Shown here: positions 666-50,907 of the stretch, piece by piece
Numbering within the stretch: position 1 is the stretch's first letter
Layout of the letters: each line of letters begins with the position of its first letter
Assembly (NCBI GenBank): GCA_964579635.1
Contig: CAZOFV010000002.1
Location: 1,371 to 65,370 of the forward strand
Reading direction: 5' to 3'
Source: an uncultured Candidatus Saccharibacteria bacterium
Lineage (GTDB): Bacteria; Patescibacteriota; Minisyncoccia; Phycocordibacterales; VMEP01
DNA length: 64,000 bases
Made by a program: the position numbers and the translations under genes
Notes under the pieces: model-generated
The model's input: only the letters and a program-made list of their open reading frames with translations
What the model was told of the DNA's origin: nothing
Databases searched by the model: none

Positions 666-971
666 TTAGCTACTTAGCCCCAACATTGCCTTCAATTCGT
701 CACTGGGTTGCCACGCTGGCTCAAAGGTTATTTCAACTCGAGCTTCTCCTTTATTTAAAGAATTCACCGCACTCTCAACAGCCTCAATAAGCTCATTGGC
801 AAATGGACACAATGGAGATGTTAATGTCATTAAAACCTCAATCCCCTCCTCGTCAATCTTTATTTTATAAATAAGCCCAAGGGTCCAGACATCAATACCA
901 AGCTCTGGATCTTTAACTGTCTTTAATTTATCTACAACTTCTTTTTCAGTAATTTTTTCCATATTATTCAA
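666..971 (-). CDS. sufT: DUF59/MIP18-family Fe-S cluster assembly protein (SufT-like)
   Basis: About 100 aa with the DUF59 pattern (TSPLCPF...). Last gene of the suf operon; overlaps the sufC stop by 8 nt. Confidence 0.65.
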   Translation of the reverse strand: MNNMEKITEKEVVDKLKTVKDPELGIDVWTLGLIYKIKIDEEGIEVLMTLTSPLCPFANELIEAVESAVNSLNKGEARVEITFEPAWQPSDELKAMLGLSS

Positions 972-1692
972 ATCCTTTCTCTTTAAGGTTTACGATAATC
1001 TCAATGCCACCGGCTCGTTCAATCTTCCCGTCTTTCATCACATAAACCATATCAGGTTTTATATACTCCAAAACGTTTGGGTGGTGTGTCACTAAAATAA
1101 AACCCATTCCCTCATCTGCAAGAATTTTTATCGCCCCAAAAACTTTTTTCAACGCATCAATATCAACACCGGAATCAATCTCATCAAGTAAAGCAAACTT
1201 TGGCTTAAGGATACTAAGTTGGAGAATTTCGCTTAACTTTTTCTCGCCACCCGAAAGCCCTTTGTTTACAGAACGCTTGAGAAATTCTTCAGGCACACCA
1301 ATTTTTTGCGCCATGCCGGATGCTTCTTTATAGAAATCCATCATGCTTTGGTTCTCTTTAGTTAAATCTTTTTTTGCTTGATAAAGGAAACTTGCAAGTG
1401 GTACGCCTGAAATTTCTGGTAAATGTTGCATTGAAAGGAACAAGCCTTCTTTTGCCTTTTTTTCTGGAGATAAATGCGTAATGTCAGTATCGCCAAGTTT
1501 TATGCTTCCACTCGTTACTTCGTATTTGGGATGGCCCATAATAGCGTTTAAGAAACTAGACTTACCAGAACCGTTTGGCCCCATGAGAATAACAATCTCT
1601 CCCTGTTTAACAGAGATTGAAACATCTGTTGCGACAACCTTACCCTCTTTTGTCGTAACACTTAAATTATTGATTTCTAGTCTATTTTCCAT
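964..1692 (-). CDS. sufC: Fe-S cluster assembly ATPase SufC
   Basis: Walker A GPNGSGKSS, ABC signature LSGGEKK, Walker B LLDEIDSG. Start placed at an internal ATG that overlaps the sufU stop by 11 nt (ATGGAAAATAG), suggesting translational coupling. The ORF track extends to 1737. Confidence 0.85.
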   Translation of the reverse strand: MENRLEINNLSVTTKEGKVVATDVSISVKQGEIVILMGPNGSGKSSFLNAIMGHPKYEVTSGSIKLGDTDITHLSPEKKAKEGLFLSMQHLPEISGVPLASFLYQAKKDLTKENQSMMDFYKEASGMAQKIGVPEEFLKRSVNKGLSGGEKKLSEILQLSILKPKFALLDEIDSGVDIDALKKVFGAIKILADEGMGFILVTHHPNVLEYIKPDMVYVMKDGKIERAGGIEIIVNLKEKGFE

Positions 1693-2068
1693 ATTTTGTA
1701 ATACCATCTGATAATGCCTCATATGGTAAAAGCGCACAACGGGTGCGAGTGTGGCTTATTGGCACACCCAAAAGAGAATACATAATCCCAGGAGCCATTA
1801 ACTTCACCTCTGATAATTTCATTCCTTTTAATTTATCTGTAAAAAGAGATGCTCCCGCCAAACTTATCGCGCAACCATCACCTTGAAAAGTTGCCTCCTC
1901 AATAATCTCTCCCGCCTCATCTAATCGAACTGAGAAGATAAGGTTATCGCCACAGTTGGCGTTCTTTCCAACACCCTTAAATGTTGCATCGGAAAGAGCA
2001 CCGCGGTTATGTGGGTGACGATAGTGTTCCATTATGTTTTCTCGATAAAGTTCTTCTTCGAAGCTCAT
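1682..2068 (-). CDS. sufU: SufU/IscU-like Fe-S scaffold (NifU N-terminal domain)
   Basis: Conserved Cys motifs (NCGDNL, GDGCAIS) and a histidine in the C-terminal part. Lies between sufS and sufC. Confidence 0.8.
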   Translation of the reverse strand: MSFEEELYRENIMEHYRHPHNRGALSDATFKGVGKNANCGDNLIFSVRLDEAGEIIEEATFQGDGCAISLAGASLFTDKLKGMKLSEVKLMAPGIMYSLLGVPISHTRTRCALLPYEALSDGITKYGK

Positions 2069-2079
2069 GTTGATTTTTA

Positions 2080-3303
2080 TTATTTTTTAAAAAACTCTTG
2101 CGCTTTTTTAACACTTGATACTAAAGCATCAATATCTTCCTTTGTATTATAAAGATAAATACTTGCTCGCACAGTTGCTGGAACCCCAAGTGTTTTTACG
2201 AATGGTAATGCACAGTGATGTCCACCACGCACAGCAACATTATCACGCCCCAAAAACTCAATCACATCATGAGGATGTGCTCCTTCAACTGTGAAAGAAA
2301 CAATTCCAACATTTTTTTCAACGTCTTGTCCTGCAAAAATCTTAACTCCATCAATTTCCTTAAGTTTCTCTATTGTATAAATGGTTAATTCTTCGGTATG
2401 CTTTTTTATACTTTCAAGACCAACTTCAGTTAGATATTTCACCGCTTCGGACATTCCAATAGCTCCCGAAATATTAGGTGTTCCTGCTTCAAACTTTTCT
2501 GGGGCAGAAACAAACTCTGCTTTTTCTAAATCTACGTCAGTGACAATTCCTCCACCAAAAAACGACGGGTTTAATTTTTCACCAAGCTCGCCCCTTAGAT
2601 AAAGTGCGCCAATTCCTGTTGGTCCGCACATTTTGTGTCCAGAAAAAAACATTGCGTCACAATCTAACTCTTTTACAGAAACTAGAGTGTGTCCAACAGC
2701 TGCCGTCGCATCAACAACAACCAATGCTCCCGCCTTATGCGCAATTTGAGATATGTATAAGATGTCGTTAATCGCCCCTGTTACATTGCTTGCAAGCGTA
2801 ACCCCAACAATCTTTGTTCTATTGGTTATAAGTGATTCCACAGATTTATAATTAAGTCTGTAGTTTTCGTCCACGTTTATATATTTTAAATTAAGTTTTT
2901 TTCGTCTTGCGAGTTCTTGTAAAGGCAGAAGCATTGCGTGATGTTCCATTATTGAAACAACAACTTCATCTCCTTCTTTTAAGTCTAGTGATTGTTCAAA
3001 AGAATACGCGAGCATATTGGCTGATGCTGTTGCACCGGCAGTGAAAACAATTTCATTTTGATTGGCACCAACAAACCCAGCAACAGTCGCCCTTGCACCT
3101 TCATACGACTCACTCGCTTTTTCACTTAAAGCATATGCTCCACGATGAACATTGCTCCTAAAATTCCTATAATATTCGTCCATTGCAGAAATTACACATT
3201 CTGGAGTTTGAGAAGAAGCTGCCGAATCTAGGTAGTGCAAAGTAGCCTCTTTTGAGGCTTTAAAAATTGGAAAATCTGCCTTTATTTTCTTTATATCAAA
3301 CAT
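2080..3303 (-). CDS. sufS: Cysteine desulfurase SufS (class V aminotransferase)
   Basis: PLP-lysine motif SGHKMCGPTG, catalytic Cys loop RGGHHCA, about 400 aa. Confidence 0.9.
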   Translation of the reverse strand: MFDIKKIKADFPIFKASKEATLHYLDSAASSQTPECVISAMDEYYRNFRSNVHRGAYALSEKASESYEGARATVAGFVGANQNEIVFTAGATASANMLAYSFEQSLDLKEGDEVVVSIMEHHAMLLPLQELARRKKLNLKYINVDENYRLNYKSVESLITNRTKIVGVTLASNVTGAINDILYISQIAHKAGALVVVDATAAVGHTLVSVKELDCDAMFFSGHKMCGPTGIGALYLRGELGEKLNPSFFGGGIVTDVDLEKAEFVSAPEKFEAGTPNISGAIGMSEAVKYLTEVGLESIKKHTEELTIYTIEKLKEIDGVKIFAGQDVEKNVGIVSFTVEGAHPHDVIEFLGRDNVAVRGGHHCALPFVKTLGVPATVRASIYLYNTKEDIDALVSSVKKAQEFFKK

Positions 3304-3336
3304 AAATATCGCACAATTATGACATATTTTGTTGTT

Positions 3337-3365
3337 ATTGACAACTTACCTATATTACGGTTAAA
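3337..3365 (+). promoter_or_regulatory. Candidate sigma70-like promoter TTGACA-N17-TTAAAT driving the antisense small ORF
   Basis: Exact TTGACA, a 17-nt spacer, then TTAAAT, about 45 nt upstream of the GTG start at 3411. Confidence 0.4.
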
Positions 3366-3410
3366 TCAAGGAAGTTACTTAGTCCCATCAACCAAACAAG
3401 AGGAGTTCTC

Positions 3411-3629
3411 GTGCATACATACTTTGTCTCGTTTTCTGTAGTGCGCACCGGCCAACCATCATACCCCGTCAACAGGATTCTCAAACGCAAAGCACCAATC
3501 GTTCTGAATTCGATGGCCGACAAGCTGAGGTTGGAAGACAGTCTGCTCAAAAATTTCTACCGCGGACACACGCGGTATGCCGGCGACAGGTGTGTGCTCT
3601 TTTCCATCCAGCGTCTGCCGCTCGCGTAA
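3411..3629 (+). CDS. GC-rich orphan small protein (72 aa) encoded antisense within the suf operon gap
   Basis: SD AAGAGGAG lies 5 nt before a GTG start; a strong terminator follows. The sequence is GC-rich compared with its neighbours. No recognisable domain. Confidence 0.45.
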   Translation: MHTYFVSFSVVRTGQPSYPVNRILKRKAPIVLNSMADKLRLEDSLLKNFYRGHTRYAGDRCVLFSIQRLPLA

Positions 3630-3655
3630 GGTCCGCGCCAGCAAACAGTCAAACC

Positions 3656-3685
3656 AAAAGCCTCCCTCGGGAGGCTTTTTATTTC
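3656..3685. terminator. Rho-independent terminator (best on the + strand, usable in both directions)
   Basis: GCCTCCC-tc-GGGAGGC hairpin followed by TTTTTATTT. Located between sufD and sufS. Confidence 0.6.
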
Positions 3686-3761
3686 AACGAAAGAGGAGTG
3701 CGTGGACTAGTAATATCGTACACAGCATCCGAACGACGTTAAATCAAATGGTAAATACCAT

Positions 3762-4445
3762 TTATATTTCTAAAAATCCATCTACTAAAAGTTTATAGGC
3801 GTTTCCCTCATCAAGTCCGCGCGACATTGGATAAAACAACTCATCACGAGAAATATCTTTTATGGAAAGTGAATGAGAACAACGAACATCATTACTTGCA
3901 ATATCAAGAGATGGAATTGCGTCAACGCGAGCTTCTTCAGACAAAATCAAAAATGAAGCTGATTCCTCCCCTTTTGCCTCTATGTCTTTACCCATCGCGA
4001 TATCACTTCTGTAAATTACGTGTGCCTTATCTTTAAGAACTCCACGCACGTCAATTTTTGAAATAGTGTGTGATGCCATGTGATAAACCTTGTGATATAC
4101 ATCAACCTCCGATTCACCCACTAAATCATAAGAACTGGTTATCGAAGCTTTAGCACCACGACCGGCTAAAATAATGTGAATATCATTTTTACTAACAACC
4201 TGATTCTTAGAAGATTCAACATATTCAAATGTCGCCCCTTCGCCAACATAAACAATAAGAAGTTTTGATTGAGATAAATTATTTTCTAATTTTGTTGTTT
4301 CGTTTGATGCCACTTCAATTACTTTCCCACCCTTTGCGACGATAGATAAAAACTCCTCCGAAAAAGGAGAGGCTATTTTGAGTCCGTATTTAAAAGCGTT
4401 CGGCTCAACATAAGTATTTAAAATTTCTTTAACGTTATTTTTCAT
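3762..4445 (-). CDS. sufD: Fe-S cluster assembly protein SufD (short form)
   Basis: 227 aa SufB/D-family C-terminal beta-helix region, directly downstream of sufB. Confidence 0.75.
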   Translation of the reverse strand: MKNNVKEILNTYVEPNAFKYGLKIASPFSEEFLSIVAKGGKVIEVASNETTKLENNLSQSKLLIVYVGEGATFEYVESSKNQVVSKNDIHIILAGRGAKASITSSYDLVGESEVDVYHKVYHMASHTISKIDVRGVLKDKAHVIYRSDIAMGKDIEAKGEESASFLILSEEARVDAIPSLDIASNDVRCSHSLSIKDISRDELFYPMSRGLDEGNAYKLLVDGFLEI

Positions 4446-4450
4446 ATTGC

Positions 4451-5800
4451 TTAACCAACACTTCCCTCCATCTCAAGCTCAATCAACTTATTAAGCTCAA
4501 TTGCGTATTCAAGTGGCATGGCCTTAACGATAGGCTCCAAAAAACCGCCAACAATAAGGCGTTCTGCTTCTCTCTCAGAAAAACCGCGTGAACGTAGATA
4601 AAACACCTCATCGTCCCCTAGTCGTCCAACTTTTGCTTCGTGAGAAATATTAACCCTCTTATTATCGTTCTTCGTTGATGGGTATGTATTAGAAACTGAT
4701 TTATCATCCAAAATTAATGCATCACAAACAACAGATGACACCGCGCCTGTTGCGCGCTTCCCTATTTGCACAAACCCGCGATAAGTAGAGATACCGCCAT
4801 CTTTAGAAACTGATTTAGAACGAATCGTAGAAACTGTATCCCTCGCCAAGTGTAGCGCTTTTGCACCTGTGTCTTGATTCTGCCCCTCACCGGCAAGTAC
4901 GATTCCTAAACTATCTGCTTTTGCTCTTGCTCCCAAAAGAACAGACGATGGATAAAGCATCGTCACACATGAACCCATATTGCCGTTGACCCACTGCATT
5001 TCTCCGTCTTCATATACCATCGCTTTTTTGGTGTTTAGGTTGTAGGTGTTGCGTGACCAATTCTCAATACTTAAATATTTTACTTTCGCCCCTTTCATCA
5101 CAAAAACTTCCACACAGCCAGCATGAAGCGATGACGATGTGTATCGTGGAGCAGAACATCCTTCGATGTATTCAATCTCTGAACCTTCGTCGGCGATAAT
5201 TAATGTGTGTTCAAACTGGCCAGCAGATGGGCGGTTCATTCTAAAATACGCTTGCAAAGGCAAGCCAACTTTCACCCCTTTGGGAACATAAATAAAAGTG
5301 CCACCGCTCCAAACGGCACCGTGGAGCATGGTGAACTTATGATCAGAAGATGGCACGCAGTCGGTCATAAAATATTTTTCAACAAGCTCTGGATATTTTT
5401 GCACAGCCACATCCATATTCTCAAAAATAACCCCCTTATCAGCAAGTGATTTTTGAAGATTGTGATAAACAATCCCTGAATCATATTGAGCACCAACCCC
5501 ACCTAAATATTCGCGTTCAGCTTTTGGAATTCCGAGCTTTTCAAAAGTGTCAGTTATTTCTTTAGGGAGTTCTTTCCAGTCAGTAGTTTCCTCAACAGAA
5601 GGGTCAATGTAATAAACAAGATCGTCTAAATTGAGCCCTGATAGCGATGGACCCCAATTTGGGATAAGTGTCTCTTTCCACAAAGAAAAGGCCTCTAGGC
5701 GCTTTTTTAGCATCCAAGCGGGCTCATTCTTACTCTCCGAAATATGGCGCACAAGCGCTTCAGAAAGTCCTTTATTAACCATCTTTTCATCTATTGACAT
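4451..5800 (-). CDS. sufB: Fe-S cluster assembly protein SufB
   Basis: 449 aa, characteristic SufB conservation throughout. First gene of the operon. Confidence 0.9.
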   Translation of the reverse strand: MSIDEKMVNKGLSEALVRHISESKNEPAWMLKKRLEAFSLWKETLIPNWGPSLSGLNLDDLVYYIDPSVEETTDWKELPKEITDTFEKLGIPKAEREYLGGVGAQYDSGIVYHNLQKSLADKGVIFENMDVAVQKYPELVEKYFMTDCVPSSDHKFTMLHGAVWSGGTFIYVPKGVKVGLPLQAYFRMNRPSAGQFEHTLIIADEGSEIEYIEGCSAPRYTSSSLHAGCVEVFVMKGAKVKYLSIENWSRNTYNLNTKKAMVYEDGEMQWVNGNMGSCVTMLYPSSVLLGARAKADSLGIVLAGEGQNQDTGAKALHLARDTVSTIRSKSVSKDGGISTYRGFVQIGKRATGAVSSVVCDALILDDKSVSNTYPSTKNDNKRVNISHEAKVGRLGDDEVFYLRSRGFSEREAERLIVGGFLEPIVKAMPLEYAIELNKLIELEMEGSVG

Positions 5801-5876
5801 TGCGACAAATTATATTGTATTATCACGCCAGTTGCAAATTTGATTTAACCCAAACAAAAAGAGGAGGAGAGCTGTC

Positions 5877-6119
5877 ATGAATACTGACTGTGCCAAAGAA
5901 AATGTTTTGAAGGACAACGAGGAATTCGTCGCCTTTCTTCACGAAAACGCGCGTAAAGAAAAAATTCCCGCCACCTGCGACAAGTTGTGGCTCGCCAATG
6001 TTTGGCGGAACAACAGGGGTCTTTTCGCAAACCTCTTCGTTCTGTACACAGGGAAAGCCGTTCTTGTCCCGCAAATCGACTCGTTCTTCCAGCAAGCCGC
6101 CGAGTCGTACAAGGGCTAG
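5877..6119 (+). CDS. GC-rich orphan small protein, paralog 1 (80 aa)
   Basis: SD AAGAGGAGGA before the ATG. Shares the ATCDK and C-terminal FFQQAAESYKG motifs with the downstream paralog. Followed by a hairpin terminator. Confidence 0.6.
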   Translation: MNTDCAKENVLKDNEEFVAFLHENARKEKIPATCDKLWLANVWRNNRGLFANLFVLYTGKAVLVPQIDSFFQQAAESYKG

Positions 6120-6135
6120 CCTTTCCCTTCAACAA

Positions 6136-6165
6136 AAAGTCCCGCATTGTGCGGGGCTTTTCTAA
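6136..6165 (+). terminator. Rho-independent terminator of paralog 1
   Basis: CCCGCA-ttg-TGCGGG hairpin followed by GCTTTTCT. Identical to the copy after paralog 2. Confidence 0.6.
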
Positions 6166-6243
6166 TATTAACGTTTCCAAAAAACGTGATAGTATCACTG
6201 TAGCCGTAACTTCAATCAAATAAACTTAGAAGGAAAACATCAA

Positions 6244-6489
6244 ATGAATACCGCTAGTGTTGCCCCAACAAATGTACTGGAAGACAACAAAGAATTCGTC
6301 GCCTATCTTCACGCGCACTCCAGGGGAAGAAATGTTCCCGCAACCTGCGACAAGTCGTCATTATCCGATTATTGGCAAGGCAATAGACGCTTTTTCGTGG
6401 AAACATTCACAAGCTGTACCGGCAAGGCCGTCAACATCAAGAACATTCGCGAATTCTTCCAGCAAGCCGCCGAGTCGTACAAGGGCTAG
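6244..6489 (+). CDS. GC-rich orphan small protein, paralog 2 (81 aa)
   Basis: SD AGAAGGAAAA before the ATG. About 40% identity to paralog 1, with the last 11 codons and 3' UTR identical. A candidate promoter TTAACG-N16-TAGTAT overlaps the palindrome GTGATAGTATCAC (6186-6198). Confidence 0.6.
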   Translation: MNTASVAPTNVLEDNKEFVAYLHAHSRGRNVPATCDKSSLSDYWQGNRRFFVETFTSCTGKAVNIKNIREFFQQAAESYKG

Positions 6490-6505
6490 CCTTTCCCTTC
6501 AACAA

Positions 6506-6535
6506 AAAGTCCCGCATTGTGCGGGGCTTTTCTAA
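6506..6535. terminator. Rho-independent terminator shared by paralog 2 (+) and bcp (-)
   Basis: Same CCCGCA-ttg-TGCGGG hairpin as at 6136-6165. Confidence 0.6.
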
Positions 6536-6538
6536 TTA

Positions 6539-6997
6539 TTATTTTGTTGCGTCAGCAAGTACTTCGCCAGCATGTTCTTTTGGTTTTACTTCTTCGTAAA
6601 CTTTCTTAATTTTTCCATCTTCACCTATCAAAAAAGAGACACGGTTTGTACCTTCGTATTCACGCCCCATAAATTTTTTCTTTCCCCAAACTTCATATTT
6701 ATTCACAACTTCTTTTTTCTCGTCTGAAAGTAACGGGAATGGTAAATTATACTTTTCACTAAACTTCTTGTGGCTCTTAGTCGAATCAACAGAAATACCG
6801 AAAACAACAATTCCCATTTTTTTGAAATCATCATAACTATCGCGAATAGTACAGGCCTCAGTGGTACACCCCGGAGTATCATCTTTTGGATAAAAATAAA
6901 CCAAAACCATCTTTCCTTTATGGTCCGACAATTTATGGAGATTACCTTCTCCGTCTAGAAGTTCAAAGTCCGGAGCAACTTGTCCTTGTTTTAACAT
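6539..6997 (-). CDS. bcp: Peroxiredoxin Bcp (AhpC/TSA family thiol peroxidase)
   Basis: Peroxidatic Cys motif PGCTTEAC, 152 aa thioredoxin fold. Confidence 0.85.
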   Translation of the reverse strand: MLKQGQVAPDFELLDGEGNLHKLSDHKGKMVLVYFYPKDDTPGCTTEACTIRDSYDDFKKMGIVVFGISVDSTKSHKKFSEKYNLPFPLLSDEKKEVVNKYEVWGKKKFMGREYEGTNRVSFLIGEDGKIKKVYEEVKPKEHAGEVLADATK

Positions 6998-13100: not shown

Positions 13101-13747
13101 TCTGCTCCGATTGTTGCCTCAAAGACTGAACCGTATTTCAAGGCGTAGCGGTGATAAGTCGCCTCATCAACAACTTTTCCTACAACAATTTCATTAACTT
13201 CTTTCTTTGCAGTAGAAAGCATCTCTTTGATTTTCTCGCGAGAAGCTTCGTCTGTCATTGATTTAACTTTTGCTTTATATTCTGATTCTAGGTTTTTGAT
13301 AACCTTATCTTTTTCTTCGTCGTTAACCTTAGTGATGATGTAACCAGCAAAATAAATAACCTTTTCAAGATCAGTAACTGGCACGTTCATCAAAAGACTC
13401 ATTCTTGATGGCACACCGCGCAAAAACCAAATATGAGCAACAGGACTTGCGAGCTCGATATGCCCCATTCTTTCACGTCGAACAATAGAGCGAGTAACCT
13501 CAACTCCACATTTCTCACAGACAATATCCTTATAACGAATACGTCGATATTTTCCACAGTAACACTCGAAGTCTTTTTCTGGTCCGAATATACGTTCATC
13601 AAAAAGACCACCGCGCTCAGAACGACCGGTTCTGTAGTTGATTGTTTCCGGTTTCGTTACCTCGCCATATGACCATTCTCTTATTTTGTCCGGAGACGAA
13701 ACTGAGAGAGAAATCGCATCGAAATCTGTTGTATCAAATGTTTTCAT
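10121..13747 (-). CDS. rpoC: DNA-directed RNA polymerase beta' subunit
   Basis: 1208 aa, NADFDGD catalytic motif, zinc-binding Cys clusters. Confidence 0.95.
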
Positions 13748-17952: not shown

Positions 17953-18180
17953 CTAGTCATCTGGGGAGACAACACATCCATGGGCCGAATGCCTGCCCAG
18001 TGGGTGCTTCTCTACCAATTCGCCGAGGGTTTCGAAATAATCTTTTGACACTTGCGAATTTTCCGTCCTCTTTGCAAGAGGCTTGATTTCTCCATCTTCC
18101 TCGATACTTCTAAGCGGATCATCATGCTTGCGCCCCGGGGTTGCTTCGTAAATATCGGCCATCAAGGTCATTCGCGCCAT
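17953..18180 (-). CDS. GC-rich orphan small protein (75 aa) sitting where rimM usually lies
   Basis: SD AAAAGGAGAAAA before the ATG (18180). GC-rich. Flanked by hairpin terminators. No recognisable domain. Confidence 0.5.
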   Translation of the reverse strand: MARMTLMADIYEATPGRKHDDPLRSIEEDGEIKPLAKRTENSQVSKDYFETLGELVEKHPLGRHSAHGCVVSPDD

Positions 18181-18225
18181 CACGTTTTCTCCTTTTCGTT
18201 GATCTAAACTATTAACATCATAAAC

Positions 18226-18792: not shown

Positions 18793-19365
18793 CTAATTTG
18801 CGCGCAACGCAGCAGGATCATTGTCGTCCCAGAAGTCGAGACCGAGCCAGTCGCTGAACCAGTACCACCTGCTGCCACTCCGGCCGAGGTAACGAACGTA
18901 CAGACTATCACCGGGGTGGCGGTAGATCGTGCCCCAGAAGAACACATACTTGCCTTTCCATTCCTCGGGAATGAGGTGCGGATGAGCGAGCAGGTAGTCA
19001 AGGATATTCGCGTTTAAGACAGGCTTGCTGACGAGTTCCTTACGGAGCTTGTTGCCTTCCATCATTTTGCCGTTCTGCTGTCCTTCGGCAAGAAAAAGTT
19101 CGATCTGTGAGGCATCAAACTTGAACTGTCCGCCCTTCTGATGCTCTTCGACTTTCCAGCCATCAGGAACGAAAGGGGCAGCATCGCAGTCGATGGTGTG
19201 TTCTACCTGCGTGATAGTGGCGTAGCCGAGCCGCACTTGTCGCACCCTGGCGAGATTACCCCCAGTTGCAAGCCAGTCGAGATCGGCGACATCGGGAATG
19301 CCGTTGCGAAGAAGAGCTTGTTTGATTTTGTAGGCAAGTCCAACATCGAGTGTGATATCACTCAT
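18793..19365 (-). CDS. GC-rich orphan protein (190 aa from the ATG at 19365; the ORF track starts at an upstream TTG)
   Basis: SD AAAGGAG lies 6 nt before the ATG. About 55% GC. W-rich C-terminus (SRWYWFSDWLGLDFWDD). Inserted between rpsP and the KH gene. No recognisable domain. Confidence 0.55.
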   Translation of the reverse strand: MSDITLDVGLAYKIKQALLRNGIPDVADLDWLATGGNLARVRQVRLGYATITQVEHTIDCDAAPFVPDGWKVEEHQKGGQFKFDASQIELFLAEGQQNGKMMEGNKLRKELVSKPVLNANILDYLLAHPHLIPEEWKGKYVFFWGTIYRHPGDSLYVRYLGRSGSRWYWFSDWLGLDFWDDNDPAALRAN

Positions 19366-19430
19366 TAGAGTCTCCTTTGCGACATCGAGTCTGTGAGTAG
19401 ACAAATAGTCGCTTTAATGCCAGCGGGCTT

Positions 19431-25434: not shown

Positions 25435-26094
25435 CTAAAACTTGGGGATACGCTCCCCGACGACAATTGCACCATCGAGCGGTTCCGGCGTCGGGAAATG
25501 ATGAACGTTCTTCATTCCCTTCGGTATGAACGGGTCGCGCCCTTGAACGACGCGCCATTCATGAGTCGGGAAACGTCCGACTTCGGTCTCGCGCGGGAGA
25601 ATGAACAGGTCTAGGTAGAGATATTTCCTGCCATCTTCGCAACGCTTCATCCAGACTTGCGCATTGCAAACCACCTTTTCTCCGGCAAACGGTCCCGGAT
25701 TATGGGGGTGGTAAACGTGAATGTTCATCACGCCGCCTTTCACTGGGCGGAAAAAGCGAAGATAGTCATTACCCCCGTTCACCCCGGCCTTGTACTCCGC
25801 CATGTCCGGAATCTTCACCGAAAACAGCGCCTTTGCGTCAGACCACAACAGCTCGCGAGAAGCGACGCCATCGGACGAAACAACCTTCTTCGGCATTGGT
25901 GCCGGCGCGGGTGCCACTACCGCTTTGGCTTGGTCGGCCTTTTGCGCCACCTTGCCGTTTCCCTTCTTGGCTTTTTCTGCCCTTTCGTTTTTTGCCTTTT
26001 TGACCTCCTCGATCTTCTGGGCTCTTGCCTTCGAAGCCACTTTCGGAAAAAACATCCCGAGCTGTTCGGCCATGCCAACGTGCTGTCCACTCAT
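25435..26094 (-). CDS. GC-rich orphan protein (220 aa) with a Lys/Ala-rich N-terminal region and an unknown C-terminal domain
   Basis: SD CTAAGGAGGAAAACC before the ATG (26094). The ORF track starts earlier at a TTG. No recognisable domain. Confidence 0.5.
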   Translation of the reverse strand: MSGQHVGMAEQLGMFFPKVASKARAQKIEEVKKAKNERAEKAKKGNGKVAQKADQAKAVVAPAPAPMPKKVVSSDGVASRELLWSDAKALFSVKIPDMAEYKAGVNGGNDYLRFFRPVKGGVMNIHVYHPHNPGPFAGEKVVCNAQVWMKRCEDGRKYLYLDLFILPRETEVGRFPTHEWRVVQGRDPFIPKGMKNVHHFPTPEPLDGAIVVGERIPKF

Positions 26095-26187
26095 GGTTTT
26101 CCTCCTTAGGAAAAATGTTTGAAAATACAACGATCAATAATGCTCTTAAGATTAAAGCATTTTTATGCTAATTTGTCAAACAAAAAA

Positions 26188-34032: not shown

Positions 34033-34239
34033 ATGACTGTTCCTAAGAGAATCTTTGAAGACACGTGGGTGAAGGGAAATTTCCTGATCCCGGCAGACAA
34101 GAGCGTTCGGACTGAACTGCGACAACAGCTCGAAAACTACTCGCGCGCCGGCGTCATGTTCGTACCAGGAAACGAGGAGGTGCGATCAATCCTGAAAGCG
34201 CGTATTGCCGCAATTGATGCCTACGATACCGTGAGATAA
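34033..34239 (+). CDS. GC-rich orphan small protein (68 aa)
   Basis: SD AAAGGGGGTG before the ATG. GC-rich. A hairpin terminator follows. Confidence 0.5.
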   Translation: MTVPKRIFEDTWVKGNFLIPADKSVRTELRQQLENYSRAGVMFVPGNEEVRSILKARIAAIDAYDTVR

Positions 34240-36365: not shown

Positions 36366-36466
36366 ATTTTAAGGGTTAAATCAAAAAAGCGCCTTCGCTT
36401 TGTTACAGAAAAGTATATCAGAAAATGGCCTAAAATGAAAGCTTTTTAAGGGGAAAGTAAGGTGAA

Positions 36467-50833: not shown

Positions 50834-50907
50834 GGAGCCGCCTCTCGGATTTGAACCGAGGACCCTCGCTTTACAAAAGCGACGCTCTACCACTGAGCTA
50901 AGGCGGC
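50834..50907 (-). tRNA. tRNA-Thr (anticodon UGU), CCA encoded
   Basis: Minus-strand cloverleaf: acceptor GCCGCCT/AGGCGGC, D-arm GCTC-AGTGGTA-GAGC, anticodon stem TCGCT/AGCGA with loop TTTGTAA, T-arm CTCGG-TTCAAAT-CCGAG, then TCCA. Confidence 0.85.

Follow-up and report, generated by a model that had tools for sequence, protein, structure and literature searches.

In the 64-kb stretch of DNA analysed here (contig CAZOFV010000002.1 of an uncultured bacterium of the candidate phyla radiation, CPR; its full 64,000 nucleotides are called the window), the suf genes of iron–sulfur (Fe-S) assembly are parted between sufD and sufS by a gap that carries, on the opposite strand, a small open reading frame (ORF) that we call ORF72. 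We consider it likely that ORF72 is an autonomous small-protein cassette—one that has split the suf genes, shares a region of competing promoters with the downstream unit sufSUCT, and is exchanged between lineages by recombination. An earlier note on this DNA, made from the letters alone, had described a GC-rich cassette lying antisense within a minus-strand operon of the order sufB-sufD-gap-sufS-sufU-sufC-sufT. Pfam annotation agreed with that gene order, the gap measured 458 nt, and its GC content was indeed elevated, at 46% (52.5% over 3411–3690) as against 38% in sufS, 36% in sufD, and 39% in the whole window. At third codon positions the GC content (GC3) of ORF72 was 0.64, compared with 0.25 in sufS, and it ranged from 0.59 to 0.70 across alleles, a bias that has persisted and so is no fading trace of a recent transfer. 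The parts of the cassette are as follows.

3304–3761: the sufD-sufS gap, 458 nt
3338–3366, plus strand: putative ORF72 promoter, TTGACA (3338–3343), 17-nt spacer, TTAAAT (3361–3366), read directly from the sequence
3373–3410, plus strand: A/C-rich 5′ leader (..CCCATCAACCAAACAAGAGGAG..), conserved in the five-genome alignment
3398–3405, plus strand: Shine-Dalgarno (SD) element AAGAGGAG, 5 nt ahead of the GTG at 3411
3411–3629, plus strand: ORF72, 72 codons, GTG start, with homologues at the equivalent site
3656–3684, both strands: predicted bidirectional intrinsic terminator AAAAGCCTCC-CTCG-GGAGGCTTTTT, from folding
3685–3761: 77-nt spacer from the terminator to the sufD stop codon, from alignment

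The SD element, the GTG-started 72-residue ORF, and the strong terminator all lay where the earlier note had placed them. Five independent assemblies of related Paceibacterota (Parcubacteria) have this ORF, with its leader and hairpin, at the equivalent position, and for this reason we judge that the features of the cassette exceed chance. The nearest of these genomes by SufS (95% amino acid identity) is L002, a metagenome-assembled genome (MAG) labelled 'Parcubacteria group bacterium LiPW_30'; the other alleles come from L085/L086, L087/L088, and L089, giving five alleles with that of the window and ten pairwise comparisons. One homologue carries the NCBI annotation 'Candidatus Paceibacterota', and the window is accordingly assigned to a CPR bacterium; the samples with these genomes come from groundwater or sediment (SRR13723394, JGI 3300037810, and 3300009285). 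Comparison of these alleles indicates that ORF72 is a real protein-coding gene under purifying selection. All five are 72–74 codons long, share 47–75% amino acid identity, and contain no stop or frameshift, and the ratio of nonsynonymous to synonymous divergence (dN/dS, Nei–Gojobori) was 0.21–0.57 in 10 of 10 pairs. The L002 allele, for instance, is a GTG-started ORF of 72 codons at the equivalent place and aligns to that of the window without gaps at 56% amino acid identity, whereas L002 retains none of the competing antisense ORFs of the window. In each of the five genomes AGGAG or AGGAA stands 5–9 nt ahead of the start codon, and GTG and ATG interchange at equivalent places.

Homologues were found by an exhaustive HMMER search over 1.8 billion representative proteins, which yielded three further proteins, P0001–P0003, encoded in the independent assemblies L085/L086, L087/L088, and L089. 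Every one of them sits between sufD and sufS on the strand opposite to suf. A word-indexed protein search with the single ORF72 protein gave no match, and profile searches added only P0005, a distant paralogue (ORF66) located in tandem before the terminator at L087 3040–3240 (equivalent to L088 245–445) and near-neutral in charge (pI 6.1). The interval from sufD to sufB on the L087 contig also contains five additional ORFs, of which three are GC3-rich. Two sets of matches were set aside: P0004, a repeat protein of 1663 residues that matched over 37 residues with E = 4e-5, was put down to chance or low complexity, and loci L082–L084 from a metagenome scan were rejected as spurious because they are the reverse strand of a gene for a TonB-dependent receptor in an organism of high GC. 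No ORF72 homologue was found in the IMG/VR and INPHARED viral collections. The search for the 72-residue protein that the earlier note had suggested thus recovered homologues with HMMER, but no match to any known family; the ORF72 gene family is new to the databases, its members labelled only 'hypothetical protein'. Gene calling at the locus was uneven. P0001 (106 residues; L085 466–786) is ORF72 fused in frame to its own translated 5′ leader, an artefact of start annotation, and in Logan contig L001 the gene was missed entirely. The SufS protein was located on a single Logan contig.

The AlphaFold2 model of ORF72 was confident (pLDDT 90, pTM 0.74), from four sequences only, and has the predicted topology beta(2–11)-beta(18–26)-alpha(35–49)-beta(60–69). 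The hydrophobic core is conserved among alleles, the polar residues R12, N21, R26, S34, and Q67 are invariant, and the protein is strongly basic (pI 10.4 and net charge +8 in the window; pI 9.7–10.4 and +6 to +9 across alleles). Charge, size, and modelled fold together suggest that the product is probably a cytoplasmic nucleic-acid-binding protein.

Divergent alleles in a conserved setting

Between the window and L002, nucleotide identity across the locus was 90–93%, save for a sharp island at about 3414–3640 in which it fell to 63%. Synonymous divergence (dS) in this pair reached 1.49 in ORF72, where the proportion of differing synonymous sites (pS) was 0.65 and saturated, compared with 0.26 in sufS, 0.41 in sufD, and 0.14 in sufU—an excess of synonymous differences for which the binomial test, set against the pooled pS of the neighbours (0.26), gave P about 2e-8. 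The comparison of L002 with L089 ran in the opposite direction: dS was 0.68 in ORF72 but 1.56 in sufS, 1.13 in sufD, and 2.4 in sufU, a synonymous deficit with P about 0.007 against a pS of 0.62 (binomial). Protein identities followed suit, with the L002 ORF72 closer to its counterpart in L089 (75%) than to that in the window (56%), and the L002 SufS closer to the window (95%) than to L089 (82%). An orphan gene at the same locus, ORF80a, showed no such discordance (dS 0.55).

Because the genealogy of ORF72 conflicts with that of the suf genes, the simplest reading is that old, diverged alleles have been exchanged between lineages by homologous recombination through the leader and terminator flanks. 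Relaxed constraint was considered as a cause of the island and rejected, as it cannot raise dS above the neutral level of the flanks. Under the mechanism that we propose, the coding block would be replaced between lineages through these conserved flanks—the conserved leader stretch reads CAAACATAAATATCG...ATTGACAA—while anciently diverged alleles continue to circulate.

Promoters, terminator, and the probable division of suf

The suf genes flanking the cassette, and the units and promoter that we assign to them, are listed here.

666–971, minus strand: sufT-like gene (Pfam)
964–1737, minus strand: sufC (Pfam)
1682–2068, minus strand: sufU (Pfam)
2080–3303, minus strand: sufS (Pfam)
3762–4445, minus strand: sufD (Pfam)
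4451–5800, minus strand: sufB (Pfam)
3762–5800, minus strand: upstream unit sufB-sufD (Pfam and promoter scan)
666–3303, minus strand: downstream unit sufS-sufU-sufC-sufT-like (Pfam)
3316–3344, minus strand: putative sufS promoter, TTGTCA (3344–3339), 17-nt spacer, extended -10 TGtCATAAT (3324–3316)

In five more distant CPR genomes (L003, L004, L015, L030, and L044) sufD or sufB abuts or overlaps sufS with no gap, and the cassette is therefore a clade-specific insertion. The claim of the earlier note that an insertion splits the operon holds in this evolutionary sense, five related suf loci having the insert and five distant ones lacking it, and the split itself is supported by a conserved putative sufS promoter on the minus strand together with the predicted terminator after sufD. 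We suggest that the suf operon was contiguous ancestrally and that the cassette, once it had entered in one clade of the Paceibacterota, stayed at the site; for Fe-S biology, the suf genes of this clade probably form two transcription units, sufBD and sufSUCT, and not one.

The sufS promoter matches the consensus at 10 of 12 positions, plus a TG extension, in a consensus scan and is conserved in all five genomes, with TATAAT in place of CATAAT in L087. Its -10 element ends 12 nt ahead of the ATG at 3303 and no SD element precedes sufS; a near-leaderless sufSUCT mRNA is therefore predicted, and transcription would start with a leader of about 6 nt. On the other strand, both hexamers of the ORF72 promoter (ATTGACAA and GTTAAATCA) are identical in the five aligned genomes, separated by a 17-nt spacer, with a T at position 2 of the -10. 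The earlier note had called this promoter near-consensus: the elements TTGACA-N17-TTAAAT are present and invariant as it described, but the term overstates a -10 without A at position 2, which is also why TTAAAT is absent from the list of the consensus scan. The -35 boxes of the two promoters overlap on opposite strands with an offset of 1 nt, which should set the two divergent promoters in competition for RNA polymerase. An enzyme bound for transcription in one direction would hinder the other, and expression of ORF72 and of sufSUCT would be coupled by this competition. The 107 nt from the sufS ATG to the ORF72 start are conserved in the five genomes despite saturated synonymous sites in suf.

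At the other end of the cassette, the hairpin has a folding energy of -16.9 kcal/mol on the plus strand and -18.6 kcal/mol on the minus strand (z about -4.4 to -4.5). It is followed by the tail TTTTTATTT with the U run UUUUUAUUU on the plus strand and by the tail TTTTGGTTTG with the U run UUUUGGUUUG on the minus strand, as in an intrinsic terminator; a terminator scan had missed it because the extension of the stem consumed the T run. The hairpin also drew weak Rfam matches to terminator-bearing families on both strands, and from folding and these matches together it is therefore taken to be a bidirectional terminator. Its stems differ between genomes—GCCUCC in the window, GCCCC in L002, GCCCCGCG in L087, and GCCCCC in L089—all with energies of -15 to -20 kcal/mol at the equivalent place, so compensatory change has preserved the hairpin, which is present in all the genomes. 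Both the ORF72 transcript on the plus strand and the sufBD transcript on the minus strand are expected to end there; sufBD transcription, in the proposed mechanism, would stop at this shared element. The 77-nt spacer beyond it is about 95% conserved in L002 and L085 and is missing in L087 and L089, where the terminator sits near sufD. Within the spacer, directly after the sufD stop codon, lies the palindrome ATGGTAAATACCAT (3748–3761).

Two further features of the gap were examined and discarded. Short direct repeats (AATATCGCACA, GTTAAATCAA, and AAGAGGAGT, two copies each) were rejected as duplication scars because their order differs at the two ends, L002 lacks them, and their number is near chance, and a terminator-like minus-strand hairpin inside ORF72 (3577–3558, TACCGCGTGTGTCCGCGGTA then GAAATTTTTG) is not kept in L002 and probably arose by chance. 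Upstream, sufB has the promoter TTGCAA-N17-TATAAT, whose -10 ends 8 nt ahead of the ATG. It thus resembles sufS in having a good -10 (TATAAT and TGtCATAAT, respectively) 8–12 nt ahead of the start codon and no SD element. No SD precedes sufB, sufS, sufU, rpoD, or ahpC, and translation of native genes may be leaderless or SD-independent, in contrast with the strong SDs of four of the six other GC-rich orphan ORFs (see below).

Alternative explanations and the role of ORF72

The sharp edges of the divergence island at the ORF boundaries, and the fact that diversity-generating retroelements (DGRs) are common in CPR bacteria, might be taken to indicate hypermutation in situ, by a DGR or by local transcription-associated mutagenesis, in place of the exchange of old alleles. 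We find this barely credible: no second (template) copy of the region exists within the window, the spectrum is not adenine-specific (41 transitions and 41 transversions, with adenines not depleted among unchanged columns, 36/137), the entire protein of 72 residues varies and not a C-terminal lectin-type region, the transcribed 5′ leader is not hypervariable, and such a process could not leave L002 and L089 less diverged in ORF72 than in suf. The search for a reverse transcriptase was confined to the locus. It is similarly most improbable that ORF72 is a non-functional remnant of foreign DNA, retained solely because suf expression depends on the promoter and terminator beside it. The foreign-looking composition, the lack of a family assignment in any library, and the omission of ORF72 by gene callers in one assembly would fit a remnant, but an unconstrained frame of 219 nt would not stay open at the same length at synonymous saturation, nor would one expect the dN/dS values, the conserved hydrophobic core, and the confident predicted fold described above. 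A third possibility, raised in part by the earlier note, is that the unit acts as RNA—cis-antisense to suf read-through, or as a structured non-coding RNA (ncRNA)—and that the ORF is incidental. Its transcript would run antisense to whatever RNA reads through from sufD, and the imperfect minus-strand terminator tail TTTTGGTTTG makes some read-through plausible; high GC would stabilise the duplex, and the 5′ leader is better conserved than the ORF. Yet the Rfam scan that the note had proposed assigned no known RNA family to the region: at gathering thresholds over the whole window nothing fell in the gap, and at E ≤ 10 over 3200–3850 the only matches were to the terminator hairpin, at 14–23 bits against thresholds of 47–55. 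Folding z-scores for the gap (-1.67 on the plus strand, -0.57 on the minus strand) were unremarkable against shuffled controls, the RNAalifold consensus of the five alleles, 270 columns long, was weak at -9.5 kcal/mol, its covariation term (+1.64) being unfavourable, and neither single-sequence nor alignment folding found conserved structure beyond the terminator. The ncRNA alternative of the note thus fails on all three counts, and its suggestion of antisense modulation of sufSUC is unneeded, because the unit (about 3373–3684) lies wholly between sufS (3303) and sufD (3762), overlaps neither coding sequence, is separated from sufD by the terminator, and could pair with read-through RNA only. 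With a promoter of its own for sufS and a terminator toward sufD, coupling to sufSUCT is more likely to run through the overlapping divergent promoters. Conservation of frame, length, start codon, and SD with dN/dS below 1, together with the confident predicted fold, points to a protein product, and we regard an RNA function as very improbable.

A more serious contender makes ORF72 a small basic DNA-binding protein devoted to local control of transcription: encoded divergently from the operon, it would bind the conserved promoter region of 107 nt and regulate both sufSUCT and its own gene, a functional analogue of SufR or IscR without kinship to either. The divergent layout with overlapping -35 boxes, intergenic DNA conserved even between genomes with saturated synonymous sites, the high pI and invariant polar residues of the protein, strict synteny in five genomes, and the lack of an Rrf2-type regulator beside suf in this clade are all in keeping with it. 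The ORF upstream of suf in L015 and L044, which by its sequence may be Rrf2-like, is a further point in its favour. SufR of cyanobacteria and IscR/Rrf2 are divergently transcribed regulators of suf and isc, and ORF72 is like them in being a basic protein divergent from a suf unit with overlapping promoters. It differs from them in size (72 residues, against about 150–220), in its hypervariable, exchanged alleles, and in having neither a helix-turn-helix (HTH) or Rrf2 domain nor Fe-S-ligating cysteines; the only Cys it has is replaced by Ala in L087, which leaves no Fe-S sensing site. Nor was there any Pfam or NCBIfam match to ORF72 even at E ≤ 10, any signature of HTH, ribbon-helix-helix (RHH), AbrB, or Rrf2 type, any structural match to a DNA-binding fold, or any convincing conserved palindromic operator. 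Alleles only 47–60% identical among genomes with flanks above 90%, and swapped between lineages, would be unexpected of a dedicated regulator, and a second slot with matching layout but unrelated cargo in L088 (see below) suggests that the layout belongs to the slot and not to a specific regulator. We therefore consider a regulatory function unlikely. Allele polymorphism and exchange, the variable cargo of the sister slot, and the lack of an Fe-S or HTH signature lead us to favour an accessory, strain-variable role for ORF72—for example, in defence or in interaction with mobile elements—drawn from a GC3-rich orphan pool and not Fe-S assembly itself, although we put this forward only tentatively. 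As regards toxin–antitoxin or defence systems, PADLOC returned nothing, and four of the five genomes have ORF72 as a monocistronic unit.

Several observations weigh against the account of ORF72 as an autonomous, exchanged cassette. Strict retention beside a conserved promoter region and a basic pI would equally fit a local sufSUCT regulator. The recombination signal comes from five alleles with about 50 synonymous sites per pair, and neither a donor pool nor an empty site in a close relative was seen among the genomes examined. Position 2 of the ORF72 -10 is not the A that is usually essential, and the promoters, transcription starts, and points of termination are all deduced from sequence. 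No family match was found in Pfam, PHROGs, NCBIfam, or PADLOC; the relatives do have a conserved protein-coding gene at this position, an outcome that the earlier note had held would tell against its own reading if the function were known, but it is one without known function. Structure searches were similarly sparse, with nothing below E = 0.6 against the PDB in Foldseek and only weak matches (E ≥ 0.01) to uncharacterised phage proteins in BFVD. The latter, such as A0A8E6NT80 and A0A7S5RG55, are similar in size and beta-beta-alpha-beta topology (TM-scores 0.5–0.7), but with E of 0.01–0.2, identity of 4–24%, and no known function, and so simple a fold may recur by convergence. A PDB sequence match to HP0242 (E = 0.0017) was rejected because a stretch of 19 residues was counted twice in tandem chimeras; taken singly it gave E = 8–14.

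As a kind of element, the orphan gene cassette that sits in a recombination slot is already known. Phage morons, described by Hendrix and colleagues, are reportedly autonomous promoter-gene-terminator units of atypical composition located between two phage genes. Like them, ORF72 is a single small gene with its own predicted sigma-70-type promoter and intrinsic terminator, unlike its neighbours in composition and inserted between genes that are adjacent in relatives. It differs in lying outside any prophage, amid the housekeeping genes suf, rpoD, dnaG, and rpoC that make up the wider neighbourhood of the slot, in having no match in INPHARED, IMG/VR, or PHROGs, in a direction of transcription opposite to that of its neighbours, and in its stable inheritance at a single site in the chromosome. 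A second parallel is with the minimal mobile elements (MMEs) of Neisseria, as defined in PMC3082526. The ORF72 slot is likewise fixed between two conserved genes, sufD and sufS, in five genomes; the cassette has no transposase-size ORF, integrase, or terminal repeats, its short repeats being at chance level; its content appears, from the discordant dS, to be exchanged through conserved flanks; and content varies between genomes (the extra ORF66 in L087, and ORF80 versus a 95-residue ORF at the sister slot). In contrast to MMEs, the alternatives seen so far at the sufD-sufS slot are divergent alleles of one family, with unrelated cargo at the sister slot only, the host is an uncultured CPR bacterium, and the slot lies inside an operon to which it supplies an internal promoter and terminator.

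We also entertained, as a speculation to which we attach little weight, that ORF72 is a selfish cassette that holds the operon hostage, protected from deletion by the dependence of suf and carrying a polymorphic, strain-specific factor, with the sufB slot belonging to the same new class. If this were true, the terminator after sufD and the only sufSUCT promoter, set back-to-back with that of ORF72, would make the Fe-S genes dependent on the element, while a basic nucleic-acid-binding factor would be kept polymorphic by frequency-dependent selection, acting for example in incompatibility, defence, or anti-defence; element and sister slot would then define a new class of recombination-exchanged slots in which CPR bacteria trial orphan genes. 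As matters stand, ORF72 is a well-characterised curiosity and not a new principle. CPR bacteria have many small orphan genes, among which ORF72 is unusual in how clearly its evolution can be read: the predicted fold is confident, the slot within an essential operon is fixed, alleles are exchanged, and the GC3 bias is maintained although the background is rich in AT. For the question of how a core operon in a reduced genome is entered and rewired by accessory genes it is a workable model case, the rewiring here consisting of a predicted internal terminator, a predicted near-leaderless internal promoter, and predicted overlapping divergent promoters, and we flag the ORF72/ORF66 family and its sister family ORF80 for functional study.

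GC3-rich orphan genes and a second slot at sufB

ORF72 is not alone in its composition. At least six other GC3-rich ORFs in the window have no Pfam match; a strong SD precedes four of them, an intrinsic terminator follows five, and such orphan cassettes form a compositional class in this genome of 39% GC.

5877–6119, plus strand: GC3-rich orphan ORF80a, no Pfam match
6244–6489, plus strand: GC3-rich orphan ORF80b, no Pfam match
17953–18183, minus strand: GC-rich orphan ORF, no Pfam match
18793–19404, minus strand: GC-rich orphan ORF, no Pfam match
25435–26130, minus strand: GC-rich orphan ORF, no Pfam match
34033–34239, plus strand: GC-rich orphan ORF, no Pfam match

The four orphans starting at 17953, 18793, 25435, and 34033 have a GC content of 47–54% and GC3 of 0.53–0.63, several of them with a consensus-like promoter, strong SD, and terminator. 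ORF80a and ORF80b are paralogues of 80 and 81 residues that share 56% amino acid identity, the motif IPATCDK, and the C-terminus FFQQAAESYKG. An identical terminator follows both, within a direct repeat of 88 nt (6082–6169 and 6453–6540). One ORF80 copy is present in L002 and two in L089.

ORF80a is divergent from sufB, with interleaved promoters, in the same layout as ORF72 and sufS, and its leader (AACCCAAACAAAAAGAGGAGGAG, 5848–5871) resembles that of ORF72 (AACC[C]AAACAA..GAGGAG). Promoter and leader are kept at this sister slot upstream of sufB, with ORF80 in three genomes and an unrelated ORF of 95 residues in L088. In the latter (L088 5460–5814 against window 5801–6119) the module ..CCAGTTGCAA..CCAAACAGAAATAGGAGG is conserved ahead of the 95-residue ORF, whose product has a hydrophobic N-terminus. 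By sequence comparison, the L088 sister slot is a replacement of cargo in a conserved expression slot, and the suf cluster of this clade appears on this evidence to have two slots, each divergent from a suf unit and each hosting exchangeable orphan cargo.

A few further observations concern the same region. The 10-mer TTGATTTAAC occurs five times in the window, against 0.58 expected (none of 100 shuffles reached five), at 3360–3369 (minus), 3738–3747 (minus), 5840–5849 (plus), 13258–13267 (plus), and 36375–36384 (minus); three copies lie in suf intergenic DNA. It was rejected as an operator, being enriched but not conserved upstream of sufB in L089 and L088. The segment 6170–7023, which holds ORF80b and a gene for a Bcp/AhpC-type peroxiredoxin (6539–6997, minus strand), is missing in L002, where 6 nt stand in its place, and L089 likewise has no peroxiredoxin gene there, pointing to a recent indel beside the suf cluster. 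The longest ORF for sufC (GTG at 1737, 257 residues) overlaps sufU by 56 nt, and its true start is probably further downstream because sufC of relatives is called at 243 residues. A single tRNA (50836–50907, minus strand) is the sole Rfam match at gathering thresholds in the 64-kb window.

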